From positions 1 through 38,580 of the IMG/VR virus record IMGVR_UViG_3300045988_075530: a stretch of 38,580 bases of DNA, one strand, 5' to 3'. Positions 4,560 to 33,152 of this stretch are shown here, piece after piece. Position 1 is the stretch's first letter. Every line of letters starts with the position of its first letter. The position numbers and the translations under genes are program-made. The notes under the pieces were generated by a model. The model saw only the letters and a program-made list of their open reading frames with translations. It did not search any database and was not told where the DNA came from. Source of the stretch: a virus.

Positions 4560-4970
4560 TTGCTAAAAATAGAGGGATGGGCGCGAGATGGATGCACAGA
4601 CAAAGAGATTGCGGCGAACATCGGCATCAACCCAGATACCTTGTATACATGGAAGAAAAAATTTCCAATTTTAGCCGATACCTTAAAAAAGGGAAAAGAT
4701 GTTGTGGATAGGCAGGTAGAAAAAAGCCTGTTACAACGGGCGTTAGGATACAGCTACGAGGAGACGAGCGAAAAGTACGAAGGCGGAGTAATGACGGAGC
4801 GAAAAGTAACAAAGAAGCACGTTGCGCCAGATACAACAGCACAAATATTTTGGCTAAAGAACAGGAAGCCAGAACAGTGGCGTGATAAGCCACAGTCAGA
4901 GAGTGCAAGCGACAAAGCACTGGCGAAAGCTATTGAGATTCTTGGGGGTGTCGATAGTGCCATTAACTAG
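4560..4970 (+). CDS. terS: Terminase small subunit (HTH type); true 5' end probably near 4519-4524 (see finding)
   Basis: IEGWARDGCTDKEIAANIGINPDTLYTWKKK is an HTH, and FWLKNRKPEQWRDK is a typical TerS C-terminal motif. It lies immediately upstream of terL. The frame is open back to 4512. Confidence 0.8.
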   Translation: MLKIEGWARDGCTDKEIAANIGINPDTLYTWKKKFPILADTLKKGKDVVDRQVEKSLLQRALGYSYEETSEKYEGGVMTERKVTKKHVAPDTTAQIFWLKNRKPEQWRDKPQSESASDKALAKAIEILGGVDSAIN

Positions 4971-6162
4971 CAAGCAAGCGGAATACTTACAAGGCTGTAA
5001 CCATCGTTGGAACGTAAAGACCGGGGCGACAGGCTCCGGGAAATCCTTTGTTGACTACGCAATCGTAATTCCTCAACGCCTGACGCACCTAAAAGGATTA
5101 GGTTTGGCTGTGATGTTGGGAAACACTAGAGGCACGCTACAACGTAACATACTTGACCCCATGCGAGAGATTTGGGGAGAAGAGCTAGTTGGCGAGATAC
5201 GCAGCGACAACACAGTGCAGTTATTTGGCAAAAAAGTATATGCATTAGGTGCTGACAACAAGAAGCACGTTGCAAGGATACAGGGAGCGACGATTGAGTA
5301 TGCATACGGCGATGAGGTAACGACGTGGAATCAAGAAGTATTTGAGATGTTAAAATCTCGTCTCAGAACGTCGCACAGTCATTTTGATGGGACGTGCAAC
5401 CCGGCGGGACCGAAACACTGGTTCAAAGGCTTTCTGGATTCCGATGCAGATATATTCCAGCAGGCGTACAACATACACGATGGCTGCCTACCTCCGGAGG
5501 TAGTGGACGAGCTAATAAAAGAGTACTCCGGGACACACAGGTATCAACGATACATACTAGGCAACTGGGCAGTAGCCGAAGGACTTGTGTACGATATGTT
5601 TTCTGAGGAAAGACATGTCTGTAAAGCAAAGACTAGCGGAGAGATAATTGTTAGCTCCGACTTTGGTATGCAGAACGCTACCGTCTTCCTAGTCTGGCAG
5701 AAACGAGTAGATACTGGCAACTGGCACTGCATAAAAGAGTACTACTACTCAGGCAGAGAAAACAACCGAATGAAACCGGTCAGCGAGCTAGTAAAAGGAC
5801 TAGAGGACACGCTAAACGGGCAGAAAGATGATTTGGTGATTGTTGACCCATCCGCCGCCGCTCTCATCGTGGAGTTACGCAGTAGAGGGCATAAGGTCAA
5901 AAAGGCGGATAACACTGTTAACGATGGGATAGCAGACGTTGAGACGATGTTGACACAAGACAAATTATCGTTTGACCCGTCTTGCACGCACACGATCGAG
6001 GAGTTTGGCATTTATGCATGGGACCCAATAGCGGCTGACAAAGGCAGGGATGCAGTCATAAAACAGTCAGACCACGCAATGGATGTTATCAGGTATTTTG
6101 TAAAAACATTAAAACTCGTCAAGCGCAGCCGAACAAGACAATACAAATCAATTCTGGGGTGA
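4957..6162 (+). CDS. terL: Terminase large subunit (PBSX/XtmB-like)
   Basis: Walker A is KTGATGSGKS. Size and position fit. GTG 4957 is preceded by gggggtg. The track start at 4882 would overlap terS by 89 nt. Confidence 0.93.
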   Translation: MPLTSKQAEYLQGCNHRWNVKTGATGSGKSFVDYAIVIPQRLTHLKGLGLAVMLGNTRGTLQRNILDPMREIWGEELVGEIRSDNTVQLFGKKVYALGADNKKHVARIQGATIEYAYGDEVTTWNQEVFEMLKSRLRTSHSHFDGTCNPAGPKHWFKGFLDSDADIFQQAYNIHDGCLPPEVVDELIKEYSGTHRYQRYILGNWAVAEGLVYDMFSEERHVCKAKTSGEIIVSSDFGMQNATVFLVWQKRVDTGNWHCIKEYYYSGRENNRMKPVSELVKGLEDTLNGQKDDLVIVDPSAAALIVELRSRGHKVKKADNTVNDGIADVETMLTQDKLSFDPSCTHTIEEFGIYAWDPIAADKGRDAVIKQSDHAMDVIRYFVKTLKLVKRSRTRQYKSILG

Positions 6163-7528: not shown

Positions 7529-8521
7529 ATGTATCCATCCGACAAGTGGACAGAGCAGGAGTTACAAAAGTTAGAAAAGCGGTTAGCAGATGTATATAAA
7601 CAAGCCGGAAAGGAACTTGACGGCAAAGCGAGAAACTATTTTAAACAGTTTTCCCACCGGTACGCCAAAGAATATGCGGCATACCAGGCAGGGAAATACA
7701 CCAAGAAAGAATTTGAAGCATGGTTGATGAATCAGTATGGCAGAGGGCAGAGGTGGGAGGCGCTGCGCGAGGACATGGCGCGGAGGCTGGCGGAGTCAAA
7801 TGAGATTGCCGCGGCATACATCAACTATAAGACCCCTCTTGTGATTGCCCTTAATCATAACTTCGAGGCGTACATGATTAAATCTCTTGTGTCTGATAGA
7901 CAGATGAAAGAGATTGGAGATATTGCATTTAATCTAGTTGACGAGCACACAGTTAAACGGCTGACGGTCAAAAAGCAGAAGATTCTTCCACCACGTAGGG
8001 TGCTAAAAAGCAAGGATGTGCGATGGAACAAGAAGAAATTGCAAAATGCACTACTGCAAGGAATTTTACAGGGTGACAGCATAGGAAAGCTCGCAGGGCG
8101 ATTTCGGGACGTTACAGGCATGAATCATACTGCCGCAATTAGAAACGCCCGCACAGCGTTTACAGGGGCACAGAACGGGGGCAGGCAGGCGGCATATGAG
8201 GAAGCCTACCAGATGGGAATTGATGTAGTGAAACACTGGACAGCGACAAAGGATTTGAGGACACGAGACAGTCACAGAGCATTAGACGGTGAGGAAGTAC
8301 CGTTTAACATGGCGTACTCAAACGGTCTTATGTATCCAGGAGACCCAAGCGGAATCCCGGCGGAAGTTTATAACTGTCGATGCACGCAACGAACTGCACT
8401 GCCCACCGAACTGGCACAACCGCGAATGATACGCGTCAGAAACCCAGAGACAGGCAGAAACGAGGTTATAGAAGATATGACCTACTATGAATGGTTAGCA
8501 ACGCAAAGGGGGCGAATATGA
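7529..8521 (+). CDS. Head morphogenesis / minor capsid protein (SPP1 gp7, Mu F-like)
   Basis: Motif WTATKDLRTRDSHRALDGEEV...YPGDPSGIPAEVYNCRCT is characteristic of the Phage_Mu_F family. Confidence 0.9.
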   Translation: MYPSDKWTEQELQKLEKRLADVYKQAGKELDGKARNYFKQFSHRYAKEYAAYQAGKYTKKEFEAWLMNQYGRGQRWEALREDMARRLAESNEIAAAYINYKTPLVIALNHNFEAYMIKSLVSDRQMKEIGDIAFNLVDEHTVKRLTVKKQKILPPRRVLKSKDVRWNKKKLQNALLQGILQGDSIGKLAGRFRDVTGMNHTAAIRNARTAFTGAQNGGRQAAYEEAYQMGIDVVKHWTATKDLRTRDSHRALDGEEVPFNMAYSNGLMYPGDPSGIPAEVYNCRCTQRTALPTELAQPRMIRVRNPETGRNEVIEDMTYYEWLATQRGRI

Positions 8522-8928
8522 TGTCGGATATTGATGTTGTAAGCCACGTGGACGAAGTAATACTCAAGACCACCATATCACTTGCAAGGGCATTAGAACA
8601 GGCAGGAGCCGCCGCAGAGGGGCACGCAAAAGACCTTTGCCCGGTCGATACGGGTGCGTTGAGAAACAGTATTACGCATCAGACTGACCTAGAGAATCTC
8701 ACAGAGATAATAGGCAGTAACGAAGAATACGCCGCCTATGTAGAGTTGGGAACTGGCGTGTATTACAAGGGAGGACGAAAGACCCCATGGACTTATCAGG
8801 ACAATAAAGGACAGTGGCATATCACAAAAGGTCAGAGAGCGCAGCCGTATTTAAAACCGGCTGCGGCAAATTACGCAAAAGAATACACATCAATTATTGC
8901 GGATGAATTAAAAGGAGCGATGGAATAA
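8518..8928 (+). CDS. HK97 gp10-like neck (tail-to-head joining) protein, located in the head module
   Basis: ATGA overlap with the upstream gene. The motif AKDLCPVDTGALRNSITHQ matches the VDTGxLRxSI core of the HK97 gp10 family. Confidence 0.65.
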   Translation: MMSDIDVVSHVDEVILKTTISLARALEQAGAAAEGHAKDLCPVDTGALRNSITHQTDLENLTEIIGSNEEYAAYVELGTGVYYKGGRKTPWTYQDNKGQWHITKGQRAQPYLKPAAANYAKEYTSIIADELKGAME

Positions 8929-9428
8929 TGGACAGATTGTCTTTACTCGTCAAGGCAAAAGAAATGGCGGAGTATTTTACTGATAAAAAATTTAAATACT
9001 CGCAGAACGTGGCGAATAGCTGGGCAGGCGCAAAGAAGAAAAAGGTAAGTAATTGTGCATCGTATGTATGTTATTGCCTACAGCAATTAGGCATCCTCAA
9101 ACCGGGACAACTGTTTTATTGCAACAGGAACGGAAGAGTTGTCTATAAGGGTGCTGGAACAAAAGCGGCTATATCAAAACGATATAGATTGATAAAAGTA
9201 AATAAATTACCCCGGAATTATAAAAACAAATTAAAACCGGGAGACATTTGCTTTTACCGCCACCACACCAATATTTTCGCAGGAATAAACGAGAGCAATA
9301 AAATGGTGTGGTGGGACGCCGGAAAGGCTAGTACAAATACCAAAAAAGCAGGCGGAACATATAAAAAGATACACAGGATCATCAACGGAAATCAGAAGAT
9401 TTTATATGTGCTGAGATGGAAAGGATGA
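8928..9428 (+). CDS. NlpC/P60- or CHAP-like cysteine peptidoglycan peptidase candidate
   Basis: Candidate Cys is in VSNCASYVCYCL and candidate His in PGDICFYRHHTNIFAG, followed by WWDAG. The protein is very basic. The start is translationally coupled (TAATG). Confidence 0.55.
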   Translation: MDRLSLLVKAKEMAEYFTDKKFKYSQNVANSWAGAKKKKVSNCASYVCYCLQQLGILKPGQLFYCNRNGRVVYKGAGTKAAISKRYRLIKVNKLPRNYKNKLKPGDICFYRHHTNIFAGINESNKMVWWDAGKASTNTKKAGGTYKKIHRIINGNQKILYVLRWKG

Positions 9429-9432
9429 GAAA

Positions 9433-10383
9433 ATGACACAGAGGAAAATTATTGACGTGTCGGTATACAACGGCACAATCGACTGGAAGAAAGTAAAGAA
9501 ATACGGTTGTGATGGTGCAATCATTAAGATTATCCGCAAGGATTTAGGCAAAGACAAGAAGTTTGAGGCAAACTACAAAAAATGTGAGGAGTTAGGCATC
9601 CCATGGGGCGTGTATAACTACACATACGCTACTACAGTGGCAAAAGCCAAGTCGGACATGGAGCTTGTGTGCGACATCCTCGACAAGGCCAGCAAGAAAC
9701 ATTTTAAATACGGCATTTGGTTTGACATCGAGGATAAAGTGCAGGCAAGGCTAAGTAAAGTAAAGATTGCCGAGATTATCAATGCGGCACAGACTGTCGT
9801 TGAGTCAAGAGGGTATAAATTCGGCGTTTACACTGGTAAATCATACTTTGCGGAGCATATTGATAAAAACAAAGTTAACTGTAAAAACTGGTGGATTGCA
9901 CGTTATTACAAAGGCTATAACCGCATGGCGTTTAAGGCAACGCCGAACAAATCTTACAAGCCTGCAAGCGTGCCTGACCTCATGGCATGGCAGTATACCA
10001 GCTCTGGCGTGTTTCCGGCCAAGGTTTCAACCGGCAACGGCGGCAAGTTTGATTTAAATATTTTATATCATGACTTCCCGGCGGTGGAGCAGAAGGAAGA
10101 AACAACGAAAGAGGTTAAATACACTGGGAAATTCCCTAAATTGCCACCACGAGGCTATTACACATTTTTAGACGGTATCACAGTGCTAGAAGGCGCAAGA
10201 GGGGAAATTGAAAAATTACAGAAGTTTTTAAACTGGGCTATCGACTCGAAATTAGATACTGACGGCAAATATGGAGAAAAGACAGAAGATGCGGTAGACA
10301 TTTTTCAGTCGAAATGCAAATTAAAAATCGACGGCAAATTTGGAGCAAAATCCCTCAAAGCCGCAAAAACATTTAGAAAGTAA
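9433..10383 (+). CDS. GH25 muramidase with C-terminal PG_binding_1-like domain (endolysin-type)
   Basis: IIDVSVYNGTIDWKKVKKYGCDGAIIKI, GIWFDIED and AWQYTSSG are GH25 motifs. The C-terminal DGKYGEKTEDAVDIFQ...IDGKFGAKSLKAA is a peptidoglycan-binding repeat. Confidence 0.9.
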   Translation: MTQRKIIDVSVYNGTIDWKKVKKYGCDGAIIKIIRKDLGKDKKFEANYKKCEELGIPWGVYNYTYATTVAKAKSDMELVCDILDKASKKHFKYGIWFDIEDKVQARLSKVKIAEIINAAQTVVESRGYKFGVYTGKSYFAEHIDKNKVNCKNWWIARYYKGYNRMAFKATPNKSYKPASVPDLMAWQYTSSGVFPAKVSTGNGGKFDLNILYHDFPAVEQKEETTKEVKYTGKFPKLPPRGYYTFLDGITVLEGARGEIEKLQKFLNWAIDSKLDTDGKYGEKTEDAVDIFQSKCKLKIDGKFGAKSLKAAKTFRK

Positions 10384-24005: not shown

Positions 24006-24353
24006 ATGGAGATGGTAGATATTATGTTACCCTTAATAACTTGTATTTTTGTAGTTTTTGATTTGGTTAGCGGTGGAGTAGCTGCCTGCGCTAACCACGA
24101 GTGGAAATCCTCAGAAATGAGGAAAGGATTGTACCACAAATTTGGCTCTATCATGCTTGTAGTGCTTGCGTACCTTATTGATTACGCTCAGAAATATGTA
24201 GACCTAGGCTTCCAGGTACCTATTGCCGCAGGTGTGTGTGTATACATCATTTTAATGGAACTTGGTTCTATTGTGGAGAATATCGGCAAAATCAACCCGG
24301 ATTTATTGCCGGACAAGGTTAGAGCAATTTTAGGACTGGACAAAATGAAATAA
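24006..24353 (+). CDS. Holin (Phage_holin_4_1-like)
   Basis: SD aaggagg is present. There are three hydrophobic segments, and the motif VYIILMELGSIVENIGKINPDLLP is typical of the toxin-secretion/phage-lysis holin family. Confidence 0.8.
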   Translation: MEMVDIMLPLITCIFVVFDLVSGGVAACANHEWKSSEMRKGLYHKFGSIMLVVLAYLIDYAQKYVDLGFQVPIAAGVCVYIILMELGSIVENIGKINPDLLPDKVRAILGLDKMK

Positions 24354-24670: not shown

Positions 24671-24710
24671 AATAAGCGCGTTGCCTTCGTGGTGACACGC
24701 TTATTTTTTT
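24671..24710 (+). terminator. Rho-independent terminator ending the late operon
   Basis: Stem aataagcg / cgcttatt is followed by a run of T. Confidence 0.75.
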
Positions 24711-24741
24711 GCGATAATAAAACTATAAGGAGGGCGGAGAG

Positions 24742-25119
24742 ATGTATCAATATTGGAATCCAAACCCAGCGGCGGCAAAAGTGGGAGATTGCACCGTGCG
24801 CGCTATCTCAAAGGCTATGGGGCAGACGTGGGAAGAAACATATATACAGCTTGCCCTGTACGGCTTAATGTTGTCGGATATGCCTTCGGCTAATGCGGTG
24901 TGGGGCGCATACCTCAAAGACAATGGATTTAGCCGTTATATAATCCCAGACGAATACATGACTTGTACCGTCTCAGAATTTGCAAACAACCACCCGGAAG
25001 GGGCTTATATATTAGCACTGTCGGGGCACGTTATAGCGGTAATTGACGGTAATTACTACGACACGTGGGACAGTGGAGCAATGACACCAATATATTACTG
25101 GAGGGAAGGAGGAAAATAA
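24742..25119 (+). CDS. Papain-fold (Cys-His-Asp) peptidase-like protein, cargo gene 1
   Basis: SD aaggaggg is present. Candidate Cys is in VGDCTVRAISKAMG, and candidate His/Asp in SGHVIAVIDGNYYDTWDSG. Confidence 0.45.
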   Translation: MYQYWNPNPAAAKVGDCTVRAISKAMGQTWEETYIQLALYGLMLSDMPSANAVWGAYLKDNGFSRYIIPDEYMTCTVSEFANNHPEGAYILALSGHVIAVIDGNYYDTWDSGAMTPIYYWREGGK

Positions 25120-25626
25120 ATGTTCGGTTATCCACAATATCCACAACAATATCCACAGTATCCGCAATATCCACAACCGGATTATCTTGACCAGCTCAAT
25201 CGACTAAAACAACAGCAGGCGCCGCCTCAACAAATGCAACAGCAATCTAATCCTGATGAGCGGATTTGGGTGCAAGGACAGGGCGCGGCGGAGGCGTATT
25301 TAGTAGCACCAAATTCTTTTGTCCGTTTGTGGGACAGCCAAGCACCGATTTTTTATGAAAAAAGAGCGGACCAGACGGGCAGACCGTTTTTAGAGGTGTT
25401 TGAATATAAGCGAAAAGGCACAGATTCGCCCACAGCGGAGCTTTCACAGTCTAGCCAACCAATTAACTACGAGGAACGCTTAAATGCCTTAGAAAGGCAA
25501 ATGGAGACGTTAAGAAGGAGGGTATTGAATGAATCTCAATCCAATGCAGATGATACAGCAGTTTCAACAGTTCAGACAGCAGTTTCAGGGGGACCCGAAG
25601 CAGGAAGTGCAAAACCTGCTAAATAG
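25120..25626 (+). CDS. Y/P/Q-repeat, Q-rich protein, cargo gene 2
   Basis: The ATG directly follows the previous TAA. The N-terminus is YPQYPQQYPQYPQYPQP, encoded by five tatccacaa-type repeats. A conserved-looking core reads ERIWVQGQGAAEAYLVAPNSFVRLWDSQAPIFYEKRAD. Confidence 0.7.
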   Translation: MFGYPQYPQQYPQYPQYPQPDYLDQLNRLKQQQAPPQQMQQQSNPDERIWVQGQGAAEAYLVAPNSFVRLWDSQAPIFYEKRADQTGRPFLEVFEYKRKGTDSPTAELSQSSQPINYEERLNALERQMETLRRRVLNESQSNADDTAVSTVQTAVSGGPEAGSAKPAK

Positions 25627-25708
25627 CGGACAAATGAGCCAGCAACAGTATAACCAGTTGCAGGGTATGGCAACACAGTTTCAAAACCTTTTAAAGGGTT
25701 TTAAATAA
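25529..25708 (+). CDS. Q-rich 59-aa protein, overlapping the 3' end of the previous ORF
   Basis: SD aaggaggg lies 7 nt before the ATG. Translation is MNLNPMQMIQQFQQFRQQFQGDPKQEVQNLLNSGQMSQQQYNQLQGMATQFQNLLKGFK. It is below the track cutoff. Confidence 0.5.
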   Translation: MNLNPMQMIQQFQQFRQQFQGDPKQEVQNLLNSGQMSQQQYNQLQGMATQFQNLLKGFK

Positions 25709-25726
25709 ATAAAAAGGAGTGATTTC

Positions 25727-26563
25727 ATGGGATTAACAACAGACGGAATGAGCCCGGCAGATTTGGCGGCAGTCACAGGCAACAATAACGGCGCATTTGG
25801 CGAGGGTAACGGTGCTTGGTGGATTATCATTCTTTTCCTTTTCATCTTCTGCGGATGGGGAAACGGAAATGGATGGAATAACGGCGGCGGAGGCGCGGTA
25901 GATAACTATGTATTAGCTTCAGACTTTGCAACCTTACAGCGCCAGATTGATAGCGGTATTTCCTCCCTTGAGCGCAAGGGTGATGCCATCAACAGTGGTA
26001 TTTGTGACGGATTTTATGCGATGAATACCTCTCTGCTCAACGGATTTGCAGGAACAAATAGCACAATCCAGCAGAACGGCTATGATACACGAAATGCAAT
26101 CCAGCAGGGACAGATTGCAGATATGCAGAGCTTCAACGCTTTGCAGGCACAGTTAGCACAGTGCTGCTGTGACAACAAGCAGGCTATTGCAGGCGTTAAC
26201 TACAATATGGCGATGAATACCAATGCAATCCAGCAGGAAGTTACAAACGGCTTCTGCCAGACAAATTTCAACAACGCAAACAACACAAGAGACATCATTG
26301 ACAACCAGAACAACAACGCTAGAGCCATCCTTGATGCCCTCACAGCACAGAGAATCGAAGCTAAGGACGCTAAGATTGCCGAGCAGAATCAGCAGTTATT
26401 TGCGGCACAGTTAGCGGCTTCTCAGGCGTCACAGAACGAAACCTTAAAGGCATACATGCAGGGTCAGTTTACTTATTACAACCCTAGACCAGTGCCAGCT
26501 TTTCCGGTTTCCGCGCCTTACCAGTACGGTAACTGCGGATGCAATACCGGTTGCGGATGCTAA
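25727..26563 (+). CDS. Single-pass membrane protein with Q/N-rich ectodomain, CCC motif and Cys-rich C-terminus, cargo gene
   Basis: SD aaaaggag is present. The TM segment is AWWIIILFLFIFCGW, flanked by G/N-rich runs. It has AQCCCDNKQ and ends GNCGCNTGCGC. Confidence 0.8.
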   Translation: MGLTTDGMSPADLAAVTGNNNGAFGEGNGAWWIIILFLFIFCGWGNGNGWNNGGGGAVDNYVLASDFATLQRQIDSGISSLERKGDAINSGICDGFYAMNTSLLNGFAGTNSTIQQNGYDTRNAIQQGQIADMQSFNALQAQLAQCCCDNKQAIAGVNYNMAMNTNAIQQEVTNGFCQTNFNNANNTRDIIDNQNNNARAILDALTAQRIEAKDAKIAEQNQQLFAAQLAASQASQNETLKAYMQGQFTYYNPRPVPAFPVSAPYQYGNCGCNTGCGC

Positions 26564-26627
26564 AATTTTATAATTAGCAGCTTCCTGCGTTGACGGGATT
26601 GTTCGGCTTGTGCCGATGATGCTTATA

Positions 26628-26660
26628 GCGGCGGGGCAATCGTTCCGCCGTTTATTATTA
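26628..26660 (+). terminator. Candidate intrinsic terminator/attenuator inside the cargo cassette
   Basis: Stem cggcgg / ccgccg is followed by tttattatt. Confidence 0.45.
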
Positions 26661-26676
26661 AAAAAGGAGTGATAAC

Positions 26677-27099
26677 GTGGCAGAATTTACTAATAGCAAT
26701 ATCGTAACCGTGGCAGCGGGGCAGAATTTACCGCTCACAGAGACAGCCGTAAAGTGCGGTAGCTGTATTACACACCGGGAGGGGGCAGGAATTGTGACCC
26801 TTAGAGGCCTTACAAACCAGTGCAGGGCGCGCTATAAGGTCAGCTTTGGGGCTAATATCGCCATACCCGCCGGTGGAACTGTGACACCTATTTCTATTGC
26901 CCTGGCAATCGCCGGAGAACCATTAAATAGTGCGACAGCAATCGTAACGCCTGCGGCTGTAGGCGAATATTTTAATGTATTTGCGGCGGCATTTATTGAC
27001 GTGCCACGCGGATGTTGCATAACAATCGCAGTCGAAAATACATCTACGCAGGCAATTAATATAGCCAATAGCAATTTAATCGCCGAGAGAGTAGCGTAA
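26677..27099 (+). CDS. All-beta, BclA C-terminal / C1q-TNF-like jelly-roll candidate (exosporium-protein-like), cargo gene
   Basis: GTG start after aaaaaggag. The composition is Ala/Ile/Val/Thr/Gly rich with an alternating pattern. RYKVSFGANIAI...ISIALAIAGEPL...CCITIAVENTS...INIANSNLIAERVA resembles BclA-CTD / BxpB-type spore surface proteins. Confidence 0.45.
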   Translation: MAEFTNSNIVTVAAGQNLPLTETAVKCGSCITHREGAGIVTLRGLTNQCRARYKVSFGANIAIPAGGTVTPISIALAIAGEPLNSATAIVTPAAVGEYFNVFAAAFIDVPRGCCITIAVENTSTQAINIANSNLIAERVA

Positions 27100-27112
27100 A
27101 GGAGGGCGAAAA

Positions 27113-27511
27113 ATGGAATCATTACACAAATTAAAAAAGATGATGTGCAGAGAACTGGACGAGATTTCGAACAAAGGCGATATGAGCGCCGGGGATTTGG
27201 AAGCAGTCCATAAACTGACGGATACAATTAAAAACATCGACAAAATTATGTACTTAGAGAGCGATGATGAGTACAGCCGTGGCGGCGACTGGAACGCATC
27301 GGGAAGATATAGCCGTGGGCGTTATCCCGACATGGACTACGGCGACTACAGCAACGCTCGTAGAGGTCAGCATTATGTGAGGGGTCATTACTCTTACAAC
27401 GATGCAAAAATGCAGGTAAAAGAGACTATTAAAGACATGATGCATGACGGCAATCTGTCTAGTGCAGAACAGGCGGCATTAGGCAGAGCATTAGCAGAAT
27501 TAGACCGATAA
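27113..27511 (+). CDS. Hypothetical protein with helical ends and a central Tyr/Arg/Gly/Asp low-complexity segment, cargo gene
   Basis: SD aaaggaggg is present. The central segment is YSRGGDWNASGRYSRGRYPDMDYGDYSNARRGQHYVRGHYSY. Confidence 0.7.
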   Translation: MESLHKLKKMMCRELDEISNKGDMSAGDLEAVHKLTDTIKNIDKIMYLESDDEYSRGGDWNASGRYSRGRYPDMDYGDYSNARRGQHYVRGHYSYNDAKMQVKETIKDMMHDGNLSSAEQAALGRALAELDR

Positions 27512-27528
27512 GAGAAAGGGGTGCCGCA

Positions 27529-27846
27529 ATGATTAATATGGACGAAATTAATGCCGAAATTGCGGCATTAGAGGCAGGAAAAACAACCTACGCCACTTGC
27601 GAACGGCTTTCGATTTTATACAATGTACGCAACAATTTAATGAGCAATCAACAACCAAACCAACTATCTTCCAACGCATCATACTACTCTTATAGTTCCG
27701 AGCCAGATTCTGAATTTAAAGAAATCGCCCGAAACGCAGACTTTGAGCACTTATTACGCGTGCTTGACGAACACATGAAAGCCATAGAAGCAATGTATCC
27801 GCGAGAATATCGGTCAGTTTTGCGAAAAATAAAAGAGGGCGCTTGA
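27529..27846 (+). CDS. Hypothetical protein (105 aa), cargo gene
   Basis: SD aaagggg is present. The central segment is S/Y/N/Q rich (QQPNQLSSNASYYSYSSEP). Confidence 0.65.
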   Translation: MINMDEINAEIAALEAGKTTYATCERLSILYNVRNNLMSNQQPNQLSSNASYYSYSSEPDSEFKEIARNADFEHLLRVLDEHMKAIEAMYPREYRSVLRKIKEGA

Positions 27847-27865
27847 AACGTCCTCTTTCTTCTTG
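27833..27865 (+). terminator. Weak terminator candidate after the cargo cassette
   Basis: Stem aagagg / cctctt is followed by a T-rich tract. The stop codon lies in the loop. Confidence 0.35.
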
Positions 27866-27902
27866 TATAATATAATTACTTCTCCTTTATTTCTATCATG
27901 TT

Positions 27903-27958
27903 TTGTTATACGGTAACTGACCTTAACCCGGTGGTTTCGGCTAGTTACTGTATAACAA
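27903..27958. other. Candidate attP core for the serine integrase (56-bp imperfect dyad)
   Basis: ttgttatacggtaact ... agttactgtataacaa gives 15/16 inverted arms around a 24-bp centre that is itself partly symmetric (aacc cggt ggtt). It lies 4 bp from the integrase stop and has no flanking T-run. Confidence 0.5.
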
Positions 27959-27961
27959 AAA

Positions 27962-29299
27962 CTAAAAAAATATAATATCCTCCACGTAAGTGTCGGGGGA
28001 TATTTTTATTTCTTTTACAATGCTTTTCCAAAACACCTGCTTGTCTTGTTCACCTAACTGCATATACATATCTTTCCAACCGTCAGGAAATCTGCTTTGT
28101 ATTTTTTTCTTAGTTTCTAGTTCTTCCGTTGCGGCGGTCTGGGATAGTTCTTTTAATTCCTTTGATATAGCCTCATATCTTTCGTCATAGTATTCTTCTG
28201 TTATCCTACCTTTTTCAAACATTTTATTAATTCTTCCCAACTCGCTGGATAATTTTTTCTTTCTCTTTTCCGCATCGTTTCCGCCTGCCTTCACACGACC
28301 TTCTACCCTTAATACATCTAACTGTATTTTTTCTTCGATGTGATTGAGCATATATGTTTCTAATTTTTTTTCTGATCGCGTGTAGGTCTTGTGCTTTTGT
28401 GCGACAGAGTGGGGGCAGTGATATACTTTGTACTTTTTTCCTTTTTTGCCTATTGCACACCCGGAAAGCCTGCAACCGCAAATCGGGCATTTCATCAAGC
28501 CGGAGAAAATGTAAATACGCCTCCTGCAATCTGTCCAAGTTTTTTGGCTGGATACTTCGTTGATTTTTTGCGCTTGCTCCTCTGTGATGTACGGTTCACA
28601 GTAGTTTTTTACTCCATACATTTCGCCGCGATAAGCTGGGCTAGACATAATCTTAACCAACCTCGTTCTGGTTCTTACAAAATCAGGGTATTTACTTAAA
28701 ATATAGTCGGCGGTTCCTGCTTTTGAGAATGTCTGGAAATAGTGCTCAAACATATCCTCAATTATTCCTCGCGTCTTTTCGTCTTTTACAATCTTTTTCC
28801 CTTCTATGCGATAACCTACCGGCACTTTTCCGCCAATATATTCCTTGTTGTTCCGTTTGAATTCCATAACAGACCGTATTTTCTCACTGTCCCTGTCTGC
28901 CTCCGCCTGCGCTACGGACAGCATAATATTTACTTTAAATATTCCCTGACTTGTCTCCGTCTCATAATCCTCCCAGATAGCCCTCCAAGGCACTTTACAC
29001 GCATCAAGGACACTTTGTACCTCATAATACCCTGCAACAGCTCTAAACCACCTGTCAAGGCGTGTGAAGAGTATTATATCAATCTCGTGTTTCTTGCAAT
29101 CCTCAAGTAACTGCAAAAGGGCAGGGCGTTTTGTGTATTTTTTACGTGCAGATATGCCGGCATCGTTATAAATACCAGCAACCGTATATCCTTGCTCTTC
29201 ACAATATTTTTCAAGCGCATCTATCTGCGAATCAACGGACAATCCACTGTTCTTCTGCTCTTGCGTGCTTACTCGCACGTATAAAGCGGCTCTTTTCAT
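27962..29299 (-). CDS. int: Large serine recombinase (integrase)
   Basis: The N-terminal resolvase domain is AALYVRVSTQEQ (catalytic Ser). It has a recombinase domain, a zinc ribbon (CPICGCRLSG...YHCPH) and a coiled-coil C-terminus. Confidence 0.95.
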   Translation of the reverse strand: MKRAALYVRVSTQEQKNSGLSVDSQIDALEKYCEEQGYTVAGIYNDAGISARKKYTKRPALLQLLEDCKKHEIDIILFTRLDRWFRAVAGYYEVQSVLDACKVPWRAIWEDYETETSQGIFKVNIMLSVAQAEADRDSEKIRSVMEFKRNNKEYIGGKVPVGYRIEGKKIVKDEKTRGIIEDMFEHYFQTFSKAGTADYILSKYPDFVRTRTRLVKIMSSPAYRGEMYGVKNYCEPYITEEQAQKINEVSSQKTWTDCRRRIYIFSGLMKCPICGCRLSGCAIGKKGKKYKVYHCPHSVAQKHKTYTRSEKKLETYMLNHIEEKIQLDVLRVEGRVKAGGNDAEKRKKKLSSELGRINKMFEKGRITEEYYDERYEAISKELKELSQTAATEELETKKKIQSRFPDGWKDMYMQLGEQDKQVFWKSIVKEIKISPDTYVEDIIFF

Positions 29300-32390: not shown

Positions 32391-33029
32391 TTATTTTAAA
32401 TTAATAGTTATCTTCTTGTCTGTCCAGAACGAAGCACTATATTCTAAAATCACTTTCTTTGCATCTTTTGGTACTTCGTAGTATGCCGTAAAGCTTACGT
32501 TCTTTCCCGGAGACAAATTAGTGTTAACAAAATCACTGTTTCCTATGTATTGCTGTTCGCAAGCTGAATTGTCCGCATAGCATTCGCAATCAGATACAGA
32601 CACATATTTGTCGCCTTTTTCTGCAATATTTTCACAAGTAAAGTCTACAGCTACATATTCACATCCATCTTTTGGAGTAAAGTACTCTCCACCATCATAT
32701 CCAAATTCAGCCTTTTTAGCAGTTACTTTTAAACCGTCATTCTCAAAAGATTCTCCAACCTTTACGCTGTCTTTCTCTTTTGTTTCTTCCTTTTTAGCAG
32801 TTTCTTTTTTGGCCGCTGTTGTTGCGGTGGTACTCTTTGAAGAATCAGTGGAAGAACTGTCATCGTCACCACCACCCATTGCCATTCCTAAAACAGCCAG
32901 AACGATGATAATGATAACTACCCATTTCAACTTGCCGCCCTGTTTCTTCTGGCAATGAGGACACACTTTAGCTTTTGCGTCAATTTCTTCTTTGCAGTAC
33001 TTACAAACTTTAGTTTTTTCTTTGCTCAT
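32391..33029 (-). CDS. Zinc-ribbon / TM / DUF4352-like (Ig-like) membrane-anchored protein; moron
   Basis: ATG 33029 follows aaaaaaggag. It has CKYCKEEIDAKAKVCPHCQ, the TM segment WVVIIIIVLAVLGMAMG, an S/T/K/E linker and a beta-rich C-terminal domain. Confidence 0.8.
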   Translation of the reverse strand: MSKEKTKVCKYCKEEIDAKAKVCPHCQKKQGGKLKWVVIIIIVLAVLGMAMGGGDDDSSSTDSSKSTTATTAAKKETAKKEETKEKDSVKVGESFENDGLKVTAKKAEFGYDGGEYFTPKDGCEYVAVDFTCENIAEKGDKYVSVSDCECYADNSACEQQYIGNSDFVNTNLSPGKNVSFTAYYEVPKDAKKVILEYSASFWTDKKITINLK

Positions 33030-33074
33030 ATTTTCTGCTCCTTTTTTATTTATTATATTAATAATTTGGGTAAA

Positions 33075-33103
33075 ATTATACAGGATATTTATGATTTTAG
33101 CAA
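33075..33103 (-). promoter_or_regulatory. Sigma-A promoter (TTGCTA-17-TATAAT) for the DUF4352-like gene
   Basis: Read on the minus strand: cttgctaaaatcataaatatcctgtataat. Confidence 0.65.
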
Positions 33104-33152
33104 GCATAAATGTAAATTTTATATCATATAATTAAACAAAAACAGAAAATAC

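Follow-up and report, generated by a model that had tools for sequence, protein, structure and literature searches.

A widespread eight-gene phage module with a BclA-like jelly-roll protein, a probable dedicated regulator and an attenuator-like leader RNA

The viral sequence IMGVR_UViG_3300045988_075530 (38,580 nucleotides, positions 1 to 38,580 of the IMG/VR record; this whole stretch is referred to here as the window) is a complete temperate siphophage of ~38.6 kb, and the subject of this report is a group of eight genes, denoted P0 to P7, that it carries directly 3' of its holin gene. What first appeared to be cargo at the prophage end of one phage turns out to be a module that is very widespread and regulated autonomously, with a BclA-like core protein (P5) and a new, attenuator-like leader RNA. 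P0 to P7 keep one order in more than 100 phage loci that have different genes elsewhere, and the number of gut Clostridia phages with the unit runs into thousands. Downstream of the holin gene the order is P0, an intrinsic terminator, P1 to P7, a terminator-like hairpin, a dyad and a recombinase gene. Our tentative reading, to which we assign a probability of about 0.3, is that P0 to P7 constitute a self-regulated, horizontally mobile accessory operon whose products build a membrane-anchored, cross-linked stalk-and-head assembly in the infected or induced cell; we think that this assembly would be exosporium-like in construction and not spore-specific.

P1 to P7 occupy positions 24742-27846 as seven + strand open reading frames (ORFs), each with an upstream Shine-Dalgarno (SD) sequence of the AGGAGG/AAGGAG type. 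The initial annotation, a model's reading of the sequence alone, had described seven or eight tightly packed genes beginning behind a terminator; the seven SD-preceded ORFs stand, and with the upstream P0 the module comprises eight genes and is not bounded by that terminator. P1 to P5 match PHROG families of unknown function with E values of 1e-20 to 1e-61, and because of these five matches and the recurrence of the same gene order in dozens of divergent loci, P1 to P7 are to be regarded as genes and not chance ORFs. None of the PHROG matches is annotated as structural. P1 to P7 gave no match in Pfam or NCBIfam (for P5 none at E<=1) and none to the PADLOC models at E<=0.1, the latter leading us to reject a defence system, and searches of PDB sequences with P1 to P5 and P7, by sequence or profile, returned nothing relevant. 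Across Pfam, PHROG, NCBIfam and PADLOC, no virion, lysis, replication, defence, toxin, bacteriocin or immunity family was matched, in agreement with the early remark that no product resembles a virion, lysis, replication or defence protein. When 60 family members were compared with Pfam and NCBIfam, only the HExxH proteins of distant loci gave matches (SprT/M78).

The families concerned are very large. At 90% identity, public metagenomes contain at least 7950 clusters of P1, at least 7995 of P4 and at least 7829 of P5, nearly all unnamed or labelled 'hypothetical' and located on 35-50-kb contigs or on longer prophage-bearing contigs; at 50% identity P5 falls into 654 clusters, and almost all of the best 150 are stand-alone proteins of ~140 aa (nearly all 80-200 aa, each with a single stretch that matches). 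Species-representative genomes contributed 46 loci, about 35 of which hold all seven genes in the same order with P5 identity down to ~50%, and most of these full loci were binned to Oscillospiraceae, Ruminococcus, Acutalibacteraceae or other Clostridia. No chromosomal, non-phage homologues occurred among the 46 loci. Where ~40-kb contigs belonged to bins of metagenome-assembled genomes with names such as Bacteroides, Prevotella, Collinsella, Akkermansia and Methanobrevibacter, we considered the names unreliable as host assignments. A further 80 IMG/VR loci, found through a 20-nt RNA pattern alone, show the same gene order without exception, and the source samples of the unit are human, mouse, rabbit, lemur, yak and rumen. 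The human faecal phage contig MT837225 is 95% identical to the window across the module region. Co-occurrence as a syntenic block, raised at the outset as a check, thus extends far beyond the phage in which the genes were first noticed. In distant phages a reduced version is found that lacks P1 and consists of a P2-like gene, a P3-like gene, P4, P5 and a longer P6-like gene, followed by one or two genes for small HExxH proteins, which match the SprT/M78 models. The minimal loci are a P4-P5 pair, and P4 is always paired with P5.

P5 (26677..27099, + strand, 140 aa, GTG start; phrog_20016, E 2e-61) is the most conserved protein of the unit. Its AlphaFold2 model, built from a diverse 46-sequence alignment, is an all-beta sandwich with a predicted local distance difference test score (pLDDT) of 96.7, and in a Foldseek comparison with the PDB the C-terminal domains (CTDs) of F-BclA and BclA, together with BxpB and ExsFA, lead the matches with TM-scores of 0.70-0.78 (top entries 9h38, 1wck, 3twi, 8d02, 7r1m and 9h3d). 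Ligands of the tumour necrosis factor (TNF) family, C1q and several phage spike or fibre knobs come next, the knobs belonging to the phi812 central spike, cyanophages A4 and A-1(L), a fibritin-type whisker and a Klebsiella phage tail fibre. The resemblance of the 140-aa protein to BclA and BxpB, suspected from sequence, was thus borne out, with BclA-type matches ranking ahead of TNF ligands. In BFVD, its nearest neighbours are unannotated metagenomic phage proteins of ~135-145 aa labelled Sipho-, Myo- or Podoviridae, some of the nearest matches bearing the label 'BclA protein'. Identity to BclA-type structures in the structural alignments is 10-14%, and neither phmmer nor profile searches of PDB sequences with P5 gave anything relevant. 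On the strength of the predicted structure, we confidently describe P5 as a stand-alone TNF/C1q jelly roll of the BclA-CTD/ExsFA type, with kinship at the level of the fold only. The protein has five Cys, of which Cys49 and Cys113-Cys114 are conserved, and its 140 all-beta residues include neither collagen-like GXX repeats nor a BclA-type N-terminal targeting peptide. A 2922-aa protein (P0269) with 15 partial P5-like stretches contains FecR/Big_9 domains and was set aside as uninformative.

The RNA upstream of P5 is the second distinctive part of the module. The nucleotide sequence of the spacer between P4 and P5 is conserved even among loci with protein identity down to 55%, and covariation, covariance-model matches and folding define in it a leader with three hairpins (26563..26664, + strand): H1, an 8-bp hairpin of variable sequence; H2, a conserved TCGGC/GCCGA hairpin; and H3, an 11-bp GC-rich terminator stem (26627-26652) with a U-run, behind which stands the SD sequence of P5. 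In a model-based alignment of 35 sequences, 93.6% of the cells are paired and 21 of 24 pairs show compensatory change (149 cells); none of 500 shuffles reached the real score, and slid controls were 40-53% paired. H3 by itself is 94% paired, with compensatory change in 9 of its 11 pairs. The H2 loop and 3' arm can pair with the 5' arm of H3 as an antiterminator, and this alternative is 87.6% paired against 38-58% in slid controls, its covariation being weak with only 7 compensatory cells; transcripts truncated before the 3' arm of H3 fold into it in 38/38 cases, at a mean of -7.8 kcal/mol. The P5 leader, judged from these pairing patterns, thus appears to have the anatomy of a terminator/antiterminator attenuator. 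The covariance model found it on the + strand in 38 loci, always 5' of P5, and at least 120 IMG/VR contigs contain it. The element accompanies P5 also in a locus with a gene inserted after P4 (L036; L numbers designate individual loci) and in one that has no P4 (L041). Rfam 15 gave no match to the leader at E<=1 and no gathering-level match anywhere in the window. A leader peptide starting from the conserved linker ATG was considered and rejected because the triplet also occurs as TTG, CTG or TTC. In one subgroup an extra ORF of ~65 aa lies between leader and P5 (L007, ~7790-8000; L015/L016, ~7800-8000; 16/72 IMG/VR loci), placing the leader ~280-313 nt upstream of P5.

P0 (24388..24639, + strand, 83 aa) is a helix-turn-helix (HTH) protein of the sigma-70 region-4/GerE-like kind. 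It matches Sigma70_r4 at E 2e-4 (21.1 bits, below the Pfam cutoff of 24.1) and GerE at E 0.013, in addition to PHROG sigma factor families and, weakly, a 'positive control sigma-like factor' model. The 83-aa protein, like its family of 65-85 aa, has a match for region 4 only, and because region 2 is lacking it is not a sigma factor. Homologues of 65-85 aa, retrieved by jackhmmer seeded with the small HTH ORF beside the unit in L036, lie 80-310 nt upstream of the first module gene in nearly all loci, including the window's twin L001, Butyrivibrio phage Ceridwen and the Dulem viruses; in L031, L034 and L054 the homologue is inside the unit, after P1. The sigma-region-4-only gene, which had been noted as a mere neighbour, is thus a constant partner of the module and probably its dedicated regulator. 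P0 begins 34 nt after the holin stop codon, so it is probably carried on the late transcript. The terminator that the initial annotation placed at 24671-24710, at the end of the late operon, is clear, with a stem at 24674-24702 and a T-run to 24710 (24674..24710, + strand), and 45 of 47 distinct loci have a terminator-like hairpin and T-run behind P0. Straight after the T-run of the window lies an extended -10-like element, TGCGATAAT (24710..24718, + strand), a candidate promoter of P1 to P4 at the level of a consensus match. Hexamers of the TATAAT/TACAAT type, some preceded by TG, likewise follow the terminator in L037, L024, L015, L019, L006 and the L068 group, and such hexamers are sigma-A-like. 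Inspection by eye, which covered the region upstream of P1 and the stretch 5' of the leader, revealed no convincing sigma-E/K consensus. A CATA(A/G)C motif recurs 5' of the leader and, judged by eye, is faintly sigma-E/K-like.

P1 (24742..25119, + strand, 125 aa; phrog_3754, E 2e-29) had been suspected to be a papain-fold-like Cys-His-Asp protein. Asp16-Cys17, His96 and Asp107 are invariant in alignments of 26 and 41 sequences, and the AlphaFold2 model (pLDDT 94.1) is an alpha+beta protein with a helix-then-sheet scaffold in which Cys17 opens helix 17-26 while His96 and Asp107 lie on the successive strands 96-101 and 104-107. The triad and the topology of that proposal therefore stand, but no structural neighbour is significant: the best in Foldseek, Josephin-2, reaches E 0.084, probability 0.80 and a TM-score of 0.49, with Tae4, MCF and TssM weaker, and neither Pfam nor PDB sequences gave a match. 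With a best neighbour at only E 0.08 and TM 0.49, we call P1 papain-like in arrangement and place it in no defined family; it is a candidate peptidase or cross-linking enzyme.

P4 (25727..26563, + strand, 278 aa; phrog_16490, E 2e-41) has a conserved N-terminal peptide, one Gly-flanked hydrophobic segment (GAWWIIILFLFIFCGWG, residues 29-45), a ~190-aa Q/N-rich helix-type region with an invariant CCC and further conserved Cys, and an end marked by a P.PVPAY motif and usually a C-terminal GCGC. Its composition is 13% N and 9% Q, with 10 Cys that include the CCC and the C-terminal CGCNTGCGC. A P4 profile (positions 40-139) aligned with residues 6-108 of influenza haemagglutinin HA2, the fusion peptide plus coiled coil, at a non-significant E of 0.14-0.3, and the resemblance (E 0.14) was treated as chance. 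The remaining products are of low complexity. P2 (25120..25626, + strand, 168 aa; phrog_21718, E 5e-20) is 14% Q, with YPQ repeats and a Y/P/Q-rich N-terminus, and has a conserved beta-rich core of ~50 aa (IWVQGEEGAKAYLVAPN..LWDS...IYLKSAD.SG.PS), a short coiled coil and a K/E-rich tail, with no match in PDB or Pfam; P3 (25529..25708, + strand, 59 aa; phrog_22984, E 3e-20) is 31% Gln and predicted helical. In the window the two genes overlap by 98 nt in different frames (25529-25626), an overlap that most relatives are without, and P2 has a C-terminal extension that most relatives lack. P6 (27113..27511, + strand, 132 aa), recognized by synteny and composition, has helical N- and C-terminal parts around a low-complexity core rich in R, G, S, Y and D, and a version of ~200-260 aa occurs in distant loci. 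P7 (27529..27846, + strand, 105 aa), recognized by alignment and synteny, carries two helical segments that are conserved, ..KLA.LY.. and YGDS[ED]F......MDELM..L....P..Y..V..K., with a variable linker rich in S, Y, P and A between them. The compositions first reported (YPQ and Q in P2, Q in P3, Q/N and CCC in P4, five Cys in P5, R/G/S/Y in P6) were all correct. Hydropathy and inspection revealed no signal-peptide-type hydrophobic N-terminus in the products of the unit, and inspection of the module ORFs no lipobox-type N-terminus. Among PDB sequences the profiles of P3, P4 and P7 matched no chain of the endospore appendages (ENAs), and homology of P3, P6 and P7 to A-ENA, F-ENA or S-ENA subunits was considered and not found.

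The positions of the unit in its carriers bear directly on its meaning. In the window and most relatives, including L047-L051 and Dulem virus 33, it has the lysis genes on one side and the integrase on the other, and in L047 it abuts host genes, among them those for UvrB and UvrA. In Dulem virus 35 (L054), by contrast with that arrangement, it lies between a MuF-like gene and the scaffold and major capsid genes, with the P0-terminator syntax kept; in L040 and L036 it stands between a head-tail connector gene and later head-tail or tail genes, adjoining in L040 a fibre-like gene of 540 aa; and in L029, L030 and L044 it closes the late block, facing divergent genes of nucleotide-metabolism or replication type (ORFs by eye). 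Ceridwen carries P1 to P5, an extra ORF, P6 and P7, all intact, after its endolysin gene, and no integrase was found within the stretch examined. Only a lytic cycle has been observed for this phage, and no excisionase evidence was reported (PMC7372960). The capsid, portal and tail genes of the carriers are unrelated; the capsid proteins of L040 and the window cannot be aligned, while their P5 proteins share 58% identity. These varied positions, together with Ceridwen and the L040 capsid, indicate that the unit moves as a block, is kept across different virions and lifestyles and is not bound to the prophage edge; the inference of lysogenic conversion that had been drawn from an edge position is weakened for a unit also found in head/tail operons and in Ceridwen. 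Its presence in a phage seen only in lytic growth and inside late structural operons further implies that it must be useful in lytic growth, and the conservation of P5 beside unalignable capsids argues for a self-contained or host-directed assembly, not a virion-fitted one. Butyrivibrio fibrisolvens, the host of Ceridwen, is not known to form spores, and neither is Faecalibacterium.

Several local variations of the unit were also observed. A tiny Cys-rich ORF (e.g. ..GSCGCGGTGNCPCCPNRKK) lies directly 5' of P1 in L025 (~1370-1446), L032 (~1960-2035) and L033 (~5250-5324), and a different small ORF holds this slot in L012, L021 and L023. Selfish elements have landed inside or beside the unit and left its genes undisrupted: HNH-like endonuclease genes lie between P4 and the leader in L036 (2333-3373, called by eye) and between P3 and P4 in Dulem virus 33 (L053, 7410-7961, - strand), and an ORF for a group-II-intron-type reverse transcriptase lies beside the L044 copy (4690-5844, by eye). 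In L029 and L044, on contigs of 138-140 kb, the reduced unit stands beside ORFs that by eye resemble anaerobic ribonucleotide reductase, dUTPase and a RuvC-type protein; the bin names of these two contigs (Methanobrevibacter, Bacilli) are doubtful.

Our data suggest, at the probability given above, the following course for a stalk-and-head assembly. P0, made from the end of the holin transcript, would activate weak promoters without a -35 element before P1 and possibly before the leader; P1 to P4 would be made first, and the RNA switch would then gate P5 to P7. P4 may insert into the membrane through its hydrophobic segment, with the helical part in the cytoplasm forming a trimeric stalk, and a P5 trimer may dock on this stalk, with the binding of BclA and F-Anchor peptides to ExsFA as the model. 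The Q/Y/P-, Q- and R/G/S/Y-rich P2, P3, P6 and P7 could serve as matrix or adaptors, P1 or the Zn-peptidase that replaces it could process or cross-link partner proteins, and the Cys clusters could add disulfides after release. The product would be freed at lysis and act on particles, debris or, in sporulating hosts, spores, aiding persistence or transmission. The timing, topology, interactions, chemistry and purpose in this scheme are what we infer from the synteny, folds, sequence features and regulatory anatomy laid out above: in its favour we count the fixed synteny, the family sizes, the fold of P5, the triad and topology of P1, the features of P4, the minimal P4-P5 pair, the HExxH proteins beside versions without P1, the linkage of P0 with its terminator, and the structure and alternative pairing of the leader. 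Several points weigh against it. Neither flank of the P4 hydrophobic segment bears positive charges, and the topology is guessed; P0 might just as well repress as activate; the promoters are putative, being consensus matches only; P1, whose chemistry is conjectural, is without a significant structural relative; and the end purpose of the assembly is speculation. A more daring version, which we consider very improbable, is a portable kit, carried by tailed phages of gut Clostridia, for an exosporium-like cross-linked coat, with P4 as stalk, P5 as head, matrix proteins and a maturation enzyme, that would be switched on late in infection by its own regulator and RNA attenuator, would encase or bundle virions or cell remains and would protect particles in transit between hosts; if true, it would be the phage counterpart of viral occlusion bodies or spore coats.

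A shaft and a knob could also be drawn as part of the virion, with P4 as a trimeric coiled-coil shaft, P5 as a TNF-like knob, the other proteins as chaperones and the peptidase maturing the fibre, after the models of the PRD1 P5 spike, the adenovirus fibre and fibritin-type whiskers. The TNF-like knobs of phage fibres and spikes among the structural matches of P5, the placement within head/tail gene blocks (L054, L040, L036) next to a fibre-like gene in L040, the constant co-orientation with late genes and the lack of signal peptides all agree with such an accessory fibre or decoration. We nevertheless find it unlikely, because P5 is the most conserved protein above unrelated capsid, portal and tail genes, whereas parts that bind a receptor or fit a capsid usually change along with the host or the virion; moreover, a very hydrophobic segment of 17 residues, as in P4, is unusual in a soluble fibre, in most genomes the unit comes past the lysis genes, set off by a terminator and equipped with a regulator of its own, and PHROG offers no structural annotation. 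The initial annotation proposed a module acting on the spore or cell surface of the host. In the spore version of this idea, the mother cell of a lysogen would produce the proteins, which would become part of the coat and exosporium layers or take their place, with P0 acting in a GerE-like manner. Many members of the Oscillospiraceae and Clostridia sporulate, and most bins belong to Oscillospiraceae or other Clostridia. The nearest structures to P5 are exosporium BclA-CTD and ExsFA, a Cys-, Gln-, Tyr- and Gly-rich composition without signal peptides fits coat proteins, P0 weakly matches GerE-type HTH proteins, the motif 5' of the leader is faintly sigma-E/K-like, and the majority of carriers are temperate phages in which the unit borders host DNA at the edge of the prophage. 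Fold and composition thus stand in its favour, but the unit is intact in Ceridwen, with its lytic growth and a host that to our knowledge does not sporulate, and lies within late structural operons of several phages, so this proposal is only partly supported. The -10-like hexamers that follow the upstream terminator are of sigma-A type, Faecalibacterium is the bin of some carriers (bins of ~40-kb phage contigs being unreliable), the 46 genome loci include no chromosomal non-phage homologues, and a survey of sporulation genes in gut phages names no coat or exosporium genes (PMC10294663). We regard spore-surface remodelling as unlikely.

Two further readings start from the usual neighbourhood of the unit. 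An egress or membrane-remodelling device, in which a spanin- or class-I-fusion-like P4, capped by P5 and activated by the peptidase, would aid lysis or release, is suggested by the position directly after holin and endolysin genes in most phages and by the architecture of P4 (hydrophobic Gly-rich segment, long coiled coil, presumed intermolecular Cys), and is compatible with the weak, non-significant HA2 match (E 0.14); in L040 the gene before the unit encodes a coiled-coil protein of 86 aa that ends in a hydrophobic segment and is XhlA-like by inspection only. Clostridia are, however, monoderm, so no second membrane needs fusing; a lipoprotein partner is lacking, the HA2 match is at chance level, a canonical holin and endolysin are present anyway (GH25 in the window, NAGPA/Amidase_3 in relatives), and five other conserved proteins would be left unexplained, which makes this device improbable. 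Lysis-released cargo following the logic of Shiga toxin, with P5 and its partners as effectors or bacteriocin-like factors against competitors or the animal host, would account for a unit at the end of the late operon, beside the holin, with a small sigma-like regulator, and clostridial toxin and bacteriocin loci offer a parallel in their TcdR/UviA regulators with holin-like export. The lack of signal peptides, the TNF/C1q fold of P5 and its very high conservation are also in keeping with it. Yet no toxin, bacteriocin or immunity family was matched, the low-complexity, Cys-rich, membrane-anchored set looks structural and not enzymatic, and seven co-conserved genes are many for a single effector; we hold this reading to be decidedly improbable. 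The remaining probability falls to something else.

In the rest of the window, the phage genes called comprise terminase, SPP1-type portal, MuF, scaffold, tape measure, tail, holin and serine recombinase genes, along with repressors, an anti-repressor, replication genes and ERF. The holin (Phage_holin_4_1, PF05105, E 5e-19; 24006..24353, + strand) is the last recognizable late gene before P0. At the other end the module closes with a terminator-like hairpin at the end of P7 (27832..27858, + strand), followed, outside the module, by an attP-like imperfect dyad (27901..27960, no strand) whose 28-nt arms (27901-27928 and 27933-27960) are 82% complementary, and by the adjoining gene for a 445-aa serine recombinase (27962-29299, - strand), identified from sequence features and from the match of a relative's equivalent gene to Resolvase/Zn_ribbon_recom; the dyad begins 55 bp beyond P7, as had been described. 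A near-consensus sigma-70-type promoter, TTGAAA-17-TATAAT (11/12; 27843-27871, + strand), overlaps the P7 terminator and is directed at the dyad, so that after integration it would read from the prophage into host DNA. The endolysin, with Glyco_hydro_25 and PG_binding_1 domains, is encoded at 9433-10383 (+ strand), away from the holin, beside a weak CHAP-like ORF at 8928-9428 (+ strand). P1 or the whole block had been considered as an endolysin surrogate, no lysin lying near the holin; this was rejected given the GH25 lysin and the NAGPA/Amidase_3 or PGRP lysins that relatives encode upstream of the unit. The lysin slot (8928-10383) lies between MuF/HK97-gp10-like genes and the scaffold gene, and because Dulem virus 35 has P0 to P6 there, it looks like an insertion hot spot for accessory cassettes. 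The early region encodes a 309-aa protein with YdcK beta-solenoid/bactofilin-like repeats (312-1241, + strand), and the lysogeny-side strand encodes a zinc-ribbon plus DUF4352 protein (32391-33107, - strand), a more conventional candidate than the module for a surface or exclusion protein expressed in the lysogen.

The unit has remained without a name, a Pfam family or a proposed role despite the at least 7,800 clusters of each of P1, P4 and P5. Its conservation, stronger than that of its carriers' capsid genes, implies an important and general role in phages of the Oscillospiraceae and Lachnospiraceae, two dominant groups of gut bacteria that are difficult to study. The unit also brings two new regulatory parts, a stand-alone region-4 protein and a terminator/antiterminator-type RNA outside Rfam. 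If a BclA/ExsFA-like assembly is indeed built outside spores, it would widen the known uses of this fold and represent a new kind of phage-made structure. Because Ceridwen is available as a cultured phage on Butyrivibrio fibrisolvens DSM 3071, the question can be approached by experiment.

The closest comparison is with BclA-CTD, ExsFA (BxpB) and the F-BclA tip, with which P5 shares the TNF/C1q jelly roll (TM-scores of 0.73-0.78, Foldseek E ~1e-6), being a stand-alone protein of ~140-150 aa like ExsFA/BxpB; its Cys-, Gln- and R/S/Y-rich partners and lack of a signal peptide also recall exosporium proteins. P5 differs from them in its 10-14% identity, the absence of any Pfam, PDB-sequence or NCBIfam match and of collagen repeats, its confinement here to phage-sized or prophage-bearing contigs, its own RNA attenuator-like element upstream and its presence in a phage whose host is not known to sporulate. 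With the spore appendages (S/L-ENA with DUF3992, the A-ENA helical hairpin, the head-neck F-ENA) there is no subunit homology, and only the tip-type C1q/BclA head is shared. Heads of the C1q/BclA type tip several kinds of spore fibres, and ExsFA binds N-terminal peptides (PMC12357932, PMC13111695), so that docking of P5, if it occurs, has precedent. Trimeric viral fibres such as PRD1 P5, the adenovirus fibre and phage tips likewise place a coiled-coil-type shaft (here P4) beside a TNF-like head (P5), whereas P4 and P5 are separate genes, P4 has a hydrophobic segment and Cys clusters, and the pair is conserved regardless of virion type. The window and most relatives share with morons and lysogenic-conversion cassettes the position between lysis genes and att site, flanking terminators, a candidate promoter of their own and no recognizable core-cycle role; unlike a moron, the unit has eight co-conserved genes, a dedicated regulator and an internal RNA switch, is confined neither to the prophage edge nor to temperate phages and is conserved above core genes. 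P4 resembles spanins and class-I fusion proteins in its N-terminal hydrophobic segment, long helical region, conserved Cys and usual holin/endolysin neighbourhood, but its hosts have no outer membrane, there is no lipoprotein partner and the HA2 similarity is non-significant. P1 agrees with the papain-like Cys enzymes (clan CA, NlpC-P60, transglutaminase core) in having Cys at a helix start and His and Asp on strands, all conserved. Like stand-alone sigma region-4/GerE-type regulators and phage late activators (Xpf, RinA-type), P0 is an HTH protein of 65-85 aa with weak matches; it differs from the late activators in lying at the far end of the late operon and not before the terminase, and in travelling with the module. 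The P5 leader shares with attenuators, riboswitch expression platforms and HK022 put-type elements a terminator with two hairpins before it and, putatively, a mutually exclusive upstream pairing, and differs in belonging to no Rfam 15 family and in occurring only in this phage module. We came across no earlier account of the eight-gene unit or its leader RNA, nor of proteins of the P0 family as regulators of a module. Since the eight-gene unit lacks at least one defining feature of each system to which it can be likened, we rate it as lying outside the known kinds of system.

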